A stretch of DNA of 64,000 bases from an uncultured Chloroflexia bacterium. Lineage in GTDB: Bacteria > Chloroflexota > UBA6077 > JACCZL01. Both the position numbers and the translations under genes were made by a program. Positions 27,655 through 29,133 of the stretch are shown one piece after another (within the stretch, counting starts at the first letter, position 1; each line of letters begins with the position of its first letter). The notes beneath the pieces are model-generated. The model was not told the origin of the DNA. It made no database searches and was given only the letters and a program-made list of their open reading frames with translations. The DNA lies in NCBI GenBank assembly GCA_963765765.1, contig CAVXYC010000016.1, positions 1 through 64,000 on the forward strand. Direction: 5' to 3'.

Positions 27655-27768
27655 TACCGACGCACCTGGAGCTGACCGGTGGGCCGGGAGTCTCCGACCG
27701 TGCAGTACCAACTGGCATGGACGACTTGGTGGGTTGCCGGCCCCGTTCGTAGCAACGGTCTTGGAGTG

Positions 27769-28730
27769 TCAAGCTGGGGATAACTTGGCAGCATTCCAAT
27801 CCTGATTAGTGGCAATGAGGTGATTGAGGATGCGCAGCAGCTTGCCCATGCAGGCGGTGAGCGCCACCTTCGTCGGTTTCCCGGCAGTACGCAGCCGCTG
27901 ATAGAACGCGCGCAGCGCGGGGTTGTGCCGCACGCCGACCAGGGCGCCCATATACAGCGCGGCCCGGACATCGGCCCGCCCGCCCCAGATGCGGCGCCGG
28001 CCACGCAGGGTCCCACTGTCGCGGCTATGCGGCGCCAGGCCCAGCAGCGCGGTGATCTCTTTGCGGCCCAGTCGGCCCAGCCCGGCAGGCGTGCCAGGAG
28101 GGTGGCCGCGATGGTGGGGCCGATGGCCGGCACCGTCCGGAGCCGCTGGGCCTTCCCGTGCCAGACCGGATCCTGGGCCACGCGCTCGGCCAGCTCTTTC
28201 TCGATCGCGGCCAGCTCCGCTTCGAGCCATTCCACGTGACGGGTGATGCCGGGGCGGACCACCGGATCCGCCTGCCGCAGGCGCTGCCGTTCGGCGACCA
28301 GCACGTCCCGCAATTGCCGACGTCGATCCACCAGCGCCTGCAGCGCCTGCGTGGCGGCGTCGAGCGGCGGACGCACCGCGGGCGCGACCGCCTCGGCAAA
28401 GTGCGCCAGCACGTGCGCATCGAGGGCGTCGGTCTTCGCCAGGCGACCGGTCGCGCGCGCGAAATCGCGCACCTGGCGCGGATTCACCACCGCGACGGGC
28501 AGTCCGGCCGCGGTGAGTGCCGTGGCCAGCGGCCGCTCGAGCCCACCGGTAGCTTCGAGCACGATGCGCTCGGGCACCAGCGGTCCCAGGGTGTCCACCA
28601 GGGCGGCGCACCCGTCGTCCGTATTGGGTACCGACCACCACTGGCCCGACGGACGGAGCGCGACGACCAGCTCCGCTTGGGCGACATCAATCCCCACGAC
28701 GACTGGGGGTGCGGCGGACTCCGAGCTCAT
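27769..28730 (-). CDS. IS110 DEDD recombinase/transposase (frameshift near 28080)
   Basis: VGIDVA, LEATGG, KTDALDA, and C-terminal [10 protein letters not shown]...[12 protein letters not shown]. Confidence 0.93.
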
Positions 28731-28770
28731 ACCACGCCTCCTCATGGCGACACTGGCAGTCGGCGACCGG

Positions 28771-28990
28771 CGTCCCCAGGCCGGAACTTGCAGATACGGG
28801 CTGAGCGCCCCGGCAACAGTACAGGCTCACGGGACGACGGGCAGAGGTGAGGCCCAGGCTACAAAACGGTCTCACCGGACCGAGTGCGGATCGGACTCTC
28901 ACCTCCGGCCGACCGCATTCCAGATGGGCTCGCTGGCCTCGCGGAGTTATCCCCACCCCGCGACGACGGCGACTTATCCCCATCTTTCAC
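28771..28990 (-). ncRNA. Predicted IS110 bridge RNA (5' hairpin, target-binding loop, donor-binding loop)
   Basis: Guides TCCGCACT (28883-28890) and TTTGTAG (28859-28865) match the flanks. Guides ACTGTTGC (28813-28820) and TGCAAG (28787-28792) match the element ends. RNA boundaries are approximate. Confidence 0.8.
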
Positions 28991-29133
28991 GCTTCGCGTT
29001 CAAGATACAAGTGCGGAATTTATTCCGCCGTCTCCCGAACTGCAGCGGCTCGTGATCGCCAACTGAGCCGTCAGCGCACATGGGTCATGCGGTTAGACTC
29101 ATTGCCGGATCTGATGGACGGAGAGCGCGGCAC

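Follow-up and report, generated by a model that had tools for sequence, protein, structure and literature searches.

A 1261-bp IS110-family insertion sequence with a predicted IS621-like bridge RNA in an uncultured high-GC soil bacterium of the Chloroflexia

The stretch of DNA analysed here (the window) comprises 64,000 nucleotides from an uncultured Chloroflexia bacterium (contig CAVXYC010000016.1 of assembly GCA_963765765.1), and its minus strand carries at 27751-29011 an insertion sequence of the IS110 family, 1261 bp long including a CT core dinucleotide at each end. The locus raises the question of how this element finds its sites, and whether it does so through a bridge RNA of the kind known from IS621. 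The original prediction, which was made from the letters of the window, had described a complete IS110 element with readable bridge-RNA guides. Our analysis indicated that this is very probably an IS110-group, IS621-like insertion sequence which moves by bridge-RNA-guided recombination, and every sequence-level feature of the group that could be examined was found in it. The mechanism was already established for IS621 in 2024, and what is new here is a distantly related ortholog. The anatomy of the element, the boundaries of its copies, its homology, the covariation of its structure and of its guides with the flanks, and one polymorphic junction were all observed directly.

The genome holding the window (G000; 33 contigs with a completeness of 91.8% and a contamination of 6.9%) gave six matches to the element. 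Four of them were full length (L001 to L004, the window copy among them), with identities of 100, 99, 99 and 94%, and the other two were partial and represented other IS110-type genes. When the four copies were aligned together with 40 nt of flank, similarity began and ended at identical CT dinucleotides, and CT was present at both ends in 4/4 copies. Since three further full-length copies share the exact CT limits, the 1261-bp boundaries are fixed independently of the window. The right flanks of the other copies were ACCAGC, ACAAAC and ACAGCA. No terminal inverted repeat was seen between the two ends by eye, no repeat-finding program being used. Every flank, core, end, stem and loop described in the original prediction was found in place, and the ends of the window copy read as follows.

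29012-29032, minus strand: GACGGCGGAATAAATTCCGCA, the 3' part of a hairpin repeat resembling repetitive extragenic palindromic (REP) sequences, in the left flank; its last bases are the left target
29020-29012, minus strand: left flank AATTCCGCA, followed by the CT core (29011-29010) and TGTATC (29009-29004)
Left end after the core, minus strand, by direct reading: TGTATCTTGAAC
27752-27751, minus strand: right CT core, preceded by AAGACCGTTG
27745-27750, minus strand: right flank and right target ACGAAC; its pairing to the right target guide includes one G-U wobble

The non-coding left end was folded, as the original prediction had proposed. The minimum free energy (MFE) fold and a fold in which the four guide segments were held open gave an identical layout, and the 5' stem-loop and two modules of stem, internal loop and hairpin were recovered. 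A non-coding RNA with a 5' stem-loop and two loop modules is thus predicted upstream of the recombinase gene, and its parts are listed below.

28915-28992, minus strand: long 5' stem-loop, in both the MFE and the constrained fold
28842-28907, minus strand: target-binding loop module (stem, internal loop, hairpin), from the folds
28905-28898, minus strand: GAGGTGAG, which pairs with CTCACCTC as the target-loop stem
28890-28883 and 28865-28859, minus strand: target-loop contents TCCGCACT and TTTGTAG, on either side of the hairpin CGGTC/GACCG
28883-28890, minus strand: predicted left target guide UCCGCACU, equal to TCCGCA plus CT
28859-28865, minus strand: predicted right target guide UUUGUAG, complementary to CTACAAA
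28858-28857, minus strand: predicted target-loop handshake CC, in which C 28858 pairs with donor G7
28767-28840, minus strand: donor-binding loop module, from the folds
28820-28813 and 28792-28787, minus strand: ACTGTTGC and TGCAAG, on either side of a hairpin and enclosed by the donor-loop stem CGTCCC/GGGACG
28813-28820, minus strand: predicted left donor guide ACUGUUGC, equal to ACCGTTG plus C; the donor is ACCGTTGC, with one U.G wobble
28787-28795, minus strand: predicted right donor guide AUCUGCAAG, which reads the right donor half CTTGTAT
28786-28785, minus strand: predicted donor-loop handshake UU, in which U 28786 pairs with target A7

For IS621, the excerpted accounts of Durrant 2024 (PMC11208160) and Hiraizumi 2024 (PMC11208158) describe loops whose 5' side pairs with the bottom strand, and so reads like the top strand, while the 3' side pairs with the top strand, the CT core being included. 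According to the same accounts, the left donor guide has 8 nt with the core C as its last base, and the right donor guide consists of AU, two flipped bases and GCAAG, the base pair at donor position 12 being G.T. Each 3' guide, they add, is followed by two handshake bases that, once the strands have been exchanged, pair with the other DNA at its position 7. Our element fits every one of these rules, in its loop guides as well as in its handshake bases. The four guides of the original prediction were all present, the left target guide being exact and the right target guide containing one wobble. Its donor guides also matched with one wobble each; however, the right donor guide is better read as the discontiguous AU..GCAAG (28795-28787) than as a contiguous segment, on the analogy of IS621. 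Read in this way, the guide base-pairs to CTTGT through GCAAG, the pair at donor position 12 being a G.T wobble, and to positions 13-14 through AU.

The flanks of the other copies, which had been proposed as a check, agreed with the guides. The left target guide was identical to the left target plus core in 3/4 copies, with 1 mismatch in L004, and target positions 8-11 (the CT core and the next two bases) paired with the right target guide in 4/4. Beyond these positions the right target guide was perfect at L003, had one G-U at the window copy and was weaker past position 11 at L002 and L004. Furthermore, all four guide matches together were found in only 1/5000 dinucleotide-preserving shuffles of the 264-nt left end, in a test that allowed wobble and required no order or placement.

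Comparison with other elements carried the case further. A covariance model (R1; 154 positions, 41 base pairs) was built from the four copies and searched in the 80 best ortholog loci of a protein-based scan with one genome per species. These loci were 52-61% identical and came mostly from metagenome-assembled genomes (MAGs) of Dehalococcoidia, Nitrospira and Gemmatimonadales. At E<=0.01 there were 72 matches in 69/80 loci, nearly all directly upstream of the gene and on the gene strand. Among 63 distinct rows, 91.6% of the cells were standard pairs, compared with 37-45% when the partner was slid by 1-3 columns, and 35/41 pairs had changes on both sides. In helix 2, which belongs to the target module, 93% of the cells were paired and 13/15 pairs had changed on both sides (63 distinct sequences), and helices 4-7 of the donor module were 87-98% paired.

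The guides also covaried with the flanks. Ends were located by the motifs TGTATCTTG (left, found in 70/76 rows) and ACAGTTGCT (right, found in 76/76), and the test was restricted to orthologs (72 rows, of which 66 had a left end), each distinct guide/flank pair being counted once. For the six non-core bases of the left guide against the left flank (57 distinct pairs) the observed score was 3.86, the permuted mean 2.16 and the highest of 2000 permutations 2.58. The five non-core bases of the right guide against the right flank (46 distinct pairs) gave 4.04 observed and 1.43 permuted, with 2.0 as the highest of 2000, so that both scores exceeded every one of the permutations. The variable left donor guide bases (ACGG, ACAGG, ACAGC, ACAGTC) each matched their own right end. 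In the orthologs the target loops were different, but the donor loop (ACAGUUGC / GCAAG) was kept, as were the ends and the putative split-promoter motifs described below. The IS621 type of bridge-RNA architecture put forward in the original prediction was thus borne out by the folds, the R1 matches, the guide/flank covariation and the homology of the sibling proteins, to which we now turn.

27769-28730, minus strand: recombinase gene, frameshifted by the lack of one base between 28082 and 28081

The element had been called complete, and this stands for its ends and its RNA; however, the recombinase frame of the window copy is broken by the missing base. Translation probably starts at the second ATG (28730), which lies 7 nt downstream of AGGAGG and gives a 320-aa protein. 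At the deletion site the window reads CTGCCGG-GCTGG where L002 and L003 read CTGCCGGAGCTGG, and the 1-bp deletion therefore leaves the C-terminal catalytic-serine domain out of frame. As it is read, the window-copy recombinase is a pseudogene whose protein cannot be made, the deletion lying before the Ser domain, and the deletion itself may be either a mutation or an assembly error. The frames of L002 and L003 are open throughout and encode intact 320-aa proteins. Pfam found PF01548 (E 9e-22) and PF02371 (E 5e-18) in L002 and PF01548 (E 4e-22) in the window copy, and no Pfam match in the translation of window 27769-28100, the out-of-frame C-terminal domain. The N-terminal RuvC-like DEDD domain was accordingly found, as was, in L002, the C-terminal Tnp domain with its catalytic Ser-Gly. 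The intact sibling aligned over residues 12-319 of 320 with both ISCro4 (9t56; E 2.6e-41) and IS621 (8wt6; E 7.5e-41), and the aligned D, E, D, D and Ser-Gly were kept in the intact siblings. These residues correspond to the DEDD motif and S241 named for IS621 in the excerpted structural account (PMC11208158). An exact look-up of the 325-aa sibling protein with the longer start showed it to be absent from the protein collection. The window copy keeps intact ends and guides, and it could therefore be mobilised in trans by the recombinase of its two intact siblings, L002 and L003.

The sites at which the copies lie were also informative. The left flank common to L001-L003 reads GACGGCGGAAT(A/G)AATTCCGCA, and the landing site of the element is a REP-like palindromic repeat family, GACGGCGGAAT(A/G)AATTCCGCACTAC. 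In G000 the pattern GGAATNAATTCCGCACTAC had 20 matches at <=2 mismatches, compared with 0 in the reversed control, and 30 at <=3 mismatches; 3 of the 20 were occupied, which leaves about 17 unoccupied. The empty sites run on as CT-AC(G/A/C)A, fitting the reconstructed target. The left target is the 3' arm of the hairpin GCGGAAT/ATTCCGC, and many repeat copies form inverted pairs about 45-65 bp apart; sites of the family lie, for example, at C10:43665-43748, C14:364042-364125 and C30:245077-245159. L004 is inserted outside the repeats, at CTCCCCA-CT-ACAGCA, which differs from the left guide at one position, indicating that the guides, and not the repeat as such, choose the site.

Traces of the same kind were noticed in a same-genus genome (G001), in which a right-end-like remnant and an unoccupied hairpin repeat copy occur at C284:100-137 (L117) and C100:16-44 (L120). 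The remnant reads TTGACG..AAGACCGTTGCT and then ACAAC, with a left donor sequence identical to that of our element, and no recombinase match was found upstream of it.

How the predicted RNA might be made is suggested by two short motifs at opposite ends of the element.

27767-27772, minus strand: putative -35 hexamer TTGACA of the right end, 16 nt from the element end; it overlaps the TGA stop
29002-29007, minus strand: -10-like TATCTT in the left end, beginning 2 nt after the left core

When the ends are joined through one CT, the spacer between TTGACA and TATCTT is 18 nt, in agreement with what had been predicted for the circularised element, and a promoter scan found no sigma-70-like site in the integrated arrangement. 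Among 54 distinct junctions reconstructed from its own copies and the orthologs, the -35-like hexamer scored at least 5/6 in 47, the spacer was 17-18 nt in 45 and TATCTT was present in 38. The sequence fits a promoter that would be reconstituted across the junction of right end and left end (RE-LE) in the circle and that is conserved in orthologs. Transcription, circle formation and catalysis are what we infer from these arrangements. Excision would join the two ends at the CT core, which would place TTGACA of the right end and TATCTT of the left end 18 nt apart. The resulting promoter would transcribe the left end into a bridge RNA of about 235 nt. Its first internal loop would read TCCGCA-CT-ACRAA, the 3' foot of the REP-like hairpin repeat, and its second loop would read the joined ends ACCGTTG-CT-TGTAT, and a tetramer of the DEDD/Ser recombinase would then exchange strands at CT.

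Signs of activity were looked for in the contigs of four metagenome runs. A 145-nt contig of soil run X2 matched 27745-27778 (the right end and six flank bases) with 2 differences, and it continued off the window flank as the reverse complement of G000:C30:284748 onward. In G000 that sequence follows an unoccupied repeat arm (284729-284747) 44 bp from L003. The junction in the contig, CT-ACAAAC, is a perfect match to the right target guide, and the site is empty in G000. Such a polymorphic junction suggests recent activity; it may have arisen by a new insertion or by an inversion that the element mediated. Otherwise, runs X1 and X2 matched only short conserved pieces of the gene. Soil contigs of DNA run X3 and of RNA-library run X15 carry the extra base at 28081, so the intact-frame form exists outside this assembly. 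They also have C, not U, at 28818 (RNA strand), which makes the left donor guide a perfect match. The X15 contigs were 92-98% alike and covered parts of the gene and the donor loop; their strand, ends and RNA origin are not readable. One X3 contig that diverges at 29011 resembles a repeat copy from a locus absent in G000.

Several observations weigh against a functional bridge-RNA element. The window copy is frameshifted, and L004 is a decayed copy with 94% identity and many indels. The MFE z-score of -1.18 was unremarkable, 21/200 shuffles folding equally well, and the case for the RNA therefore rests on the comparison with other elements. In that comparison the alignment was fitted to the R1 structure, which inflates the pair counts, although the pairing margin is large in spite of it. 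The original prediction had proposed an alignment to bridge-RNA covariance models, and a scan of Rfam 15 gave no family, of bridge RNA or otherwise, at threshold. As for the covariation with flanks, the motif-located ends left 6/72 ortholog rows without a left end, and 13/57 distinct left pairs matched at <=2/6 positions because mislocated ends were kept in. The handshake position 7 paired in 63/63 rows for the target-binding loop and 56/63 rows for the donor-binding loop, mostly as invariant C:G and G:C pairs, and it thus carried little covariation. Pairing in the window copy was imperfect: the left donor guide has a U.G and the right target guide a G-U pair, and the first target position has no partner. 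Finally, the four metagenome runs consist of assembled contigs only, in which rare circles and transcript ends cannot appear, and the X2 junction depends on one short contig that an inversion would also explain.

It is conceivable from these points that the family is a fossil in this genome, its copies being immobile and the matches of guide and target recording past insertions. The frameshift of the window copy and the many indels of L004 would agree with it, no circle or RNA was seen in the assembled contigs, and in a genome of this completeness and contamination the states of the copies are possibly misassembled. We nevertheless regard a fossil as unlikely. The 320-aa frames of L002 and L003 are intact and retain every catalytic residue, identity among three of the copies is 99-100%, the X3 and X15 contigs carry an intact-frame variant, and in the X2 contig the right end adjoins a repeat arm whose counterpart in G000 is unoccupied.

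A very improbable explanation is that the structured left end is a mere 5' untranslated region or translational attenuator and that the protein chooses the target. The region does lie directly upstream of the start codon, an X15 RNA-library contig is unbroken from the coding region into the donor loop, and the fold z-score is weak. However, the loop columns covary with the flanks and ends of each ortholog and the stems covary structurally, a pattern that, in the excerpted report on IS621 (PMC11208160), belongs to loops found by experiment to guide. Hardly credible at all is a longer element that includes the 21-bp hairpin on the left, with the "target" as part of the element: L001-L003 do share about 22 bp of left flank, but the left flank of L004 is unrelated and its similarity starts at the same CT, and about 17 hairpin copies without the element run on CT-AC as an empty site predicts.

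A bridge-RNA-guided element of the IS110 group remains our preferred reading, and it can be set beside the known systems. For IS621 the loop architecture and its guiding were demonstrated experimentally (Durrant 2024, PMC11208160) and a structure was described (Hiraizumi 2024, PMC11208158), as far as the excerpted texts go. The two elements share the domain order with aligned DEDD and Ser-Gly; a left-end RNA in which a 5' stem-loop precedes the target-binding and donor-binding loops; the CT core, the strand logic of the guides and a left donor guide of 8 nt whose last base is the core C; a right donor guide ending in ..GCAAG, with G.T at donor position 12 and the identical right donor half CTTGTAT; and, besides a repeat-element target, a promoter, putative in our element, that is split across the RE-LE junction. 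However, the protein is distant over its full-length alignment, and the target TCCGCA-CT-ACRAA and left donor ACCGTTG are different. The natural right target guide has 7 nt here and 4 nt in IS621, the 5' stem-loop region about 78 nt and 33 nt, and the predicted RNA about 235 nt and 177 nt, respectively, and the host is an uncultured high-GC soil bacterium. ISCro4 (PDB 9t56), compared by protein, was the best match among solved structures and is likewise a distant homologue.

ISPpu10 and ISPpu9, the REP-targeting IS110 elements of Pseudomonas putida, likewise target a repeated intergenic palindrome, and there too the left target is the 3' hairpin arm with a 5' extension, while repeat sequence and host are different. 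The REP targets of ISPpu10 are often convergent pairs <200 bp apart, according to the excerpted preprint (bioRxiv 10.64898/2026.03.19.712850), and the inverted pairs about 45-65 bp apart seen here may be compared with them. Relative to its orthologs (from Dehalococcoidia, Nitrospira, Gemmatimonadales and other MAGs), the element is longer, with 1261 bp compared with a median of 1178 bp, and 97 nt separate its left end from the start of the model, compared with a median of 41 nt in 61 orthologs. With one genome per species, the nearest relatives were at most 61% identical in protein. No sequence above 74% identity to the element was found in 40 related genomes, and orthologous flanks from which an empty site could be read were found in 0/5 same-family genomes; many of the genomes searched are incomplete.

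IS110/IS621-type elements are catalogued by the thousand, and in the IS1111 group the guide RNA (seekRNA) lies in the right end, after the recombinase gene. Membership in IS1111 was rejected, since the stretch after the stop codon is only 18 nt long and the structured RNA is encoded upstream of the gene. G000 also holds a second, divergent IS110-type element at C33, about 18815-20106 (L005, L125), with 67% DNA identity over the gene. R1 matched it at 18944-19097 (E 1.6e-4), a bridge-RNA-like region; TTGACA and ACAGTTGCT are present in its right end, and its right flank, CTTCCCC, agrees with CTTCCCA, the complement of its right target guide.

Two further observations concern the left end. The target-loop hairpin followed by UUUUGUAG (28882-28859, minus strand) scores like an intrinsic terminator, with a 5-bp stem and a U run, and it is thus possible that the right target guide has a second role, as a weak terminator within the bridge RNA. 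The sole sub-threshold Rfam match was sX15 (RF02234; 28759-28918, plus strand, thus opposite to the element; 29.6 bits, E 0.017), an RNA described in Schmidtke 2011 (PMC3300014, in excerpt). This identity was rejected on its score, 29.6 bits against a gathering threshold of 55, and on its wrong strand. By the plasmid annotation, the sX15 type locus on pXCV183 adjoins an IS3-family transposase, and the match was therefore taken as probably due to chance.

The element sits in an intergenic stretch, with its left end 69 bp from the start of an AlkZ-like gene and facing away from it, and its neighbours are the following.

29080-30240, plus strand: AlkZ-like DNA glycosylase gene (PF06224, E 2e-61), the hairpin repeat lying between it and the element
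24949-27654, plus strand, on the other side: overlapping long open reading frames of low complexity, rich in Gly/Ser/Ala/Thr or in Arg

Pfam gave no match for the reading frames in 24949-27654, which are at best candidate genes.

A target hairpin acting as a structural gate was proposed for ISPpu10 in the excerpted preprint (bioRxiv 10.64898/2026.03.19.712850). By analogy, it is possible, although we put it forward only tentatively, that our element is now mobile in soil populations and has a two-layered specificity, in which the bridge RNA is joined by the target hairpin GCGGAAT/ATTCCGC as such a gate, and that it represents a lineage with an unusually long 5' stem-loop distant from IS621. 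That the ortholog may be reprogrammable is plausible. Should the element indeed be mobile and two-layered, we would have an ortholog with naturally long guides (8 + 7 nt), worth trying as an editing tool.

The understanding of the mechanism, which was set by the IS621 work in 2024, is unchanged by these results. What they add is a single natural bridge-RNA system, resolved in detail in an uncultured soil bacterium of high GC content, with defined ends, four guides, both handshake positions, a target repeat family and expressible intact sibling genes. It is a ready candidate for ortholog screens, and it provides a further natural case on the role of a hairpin in specificity.

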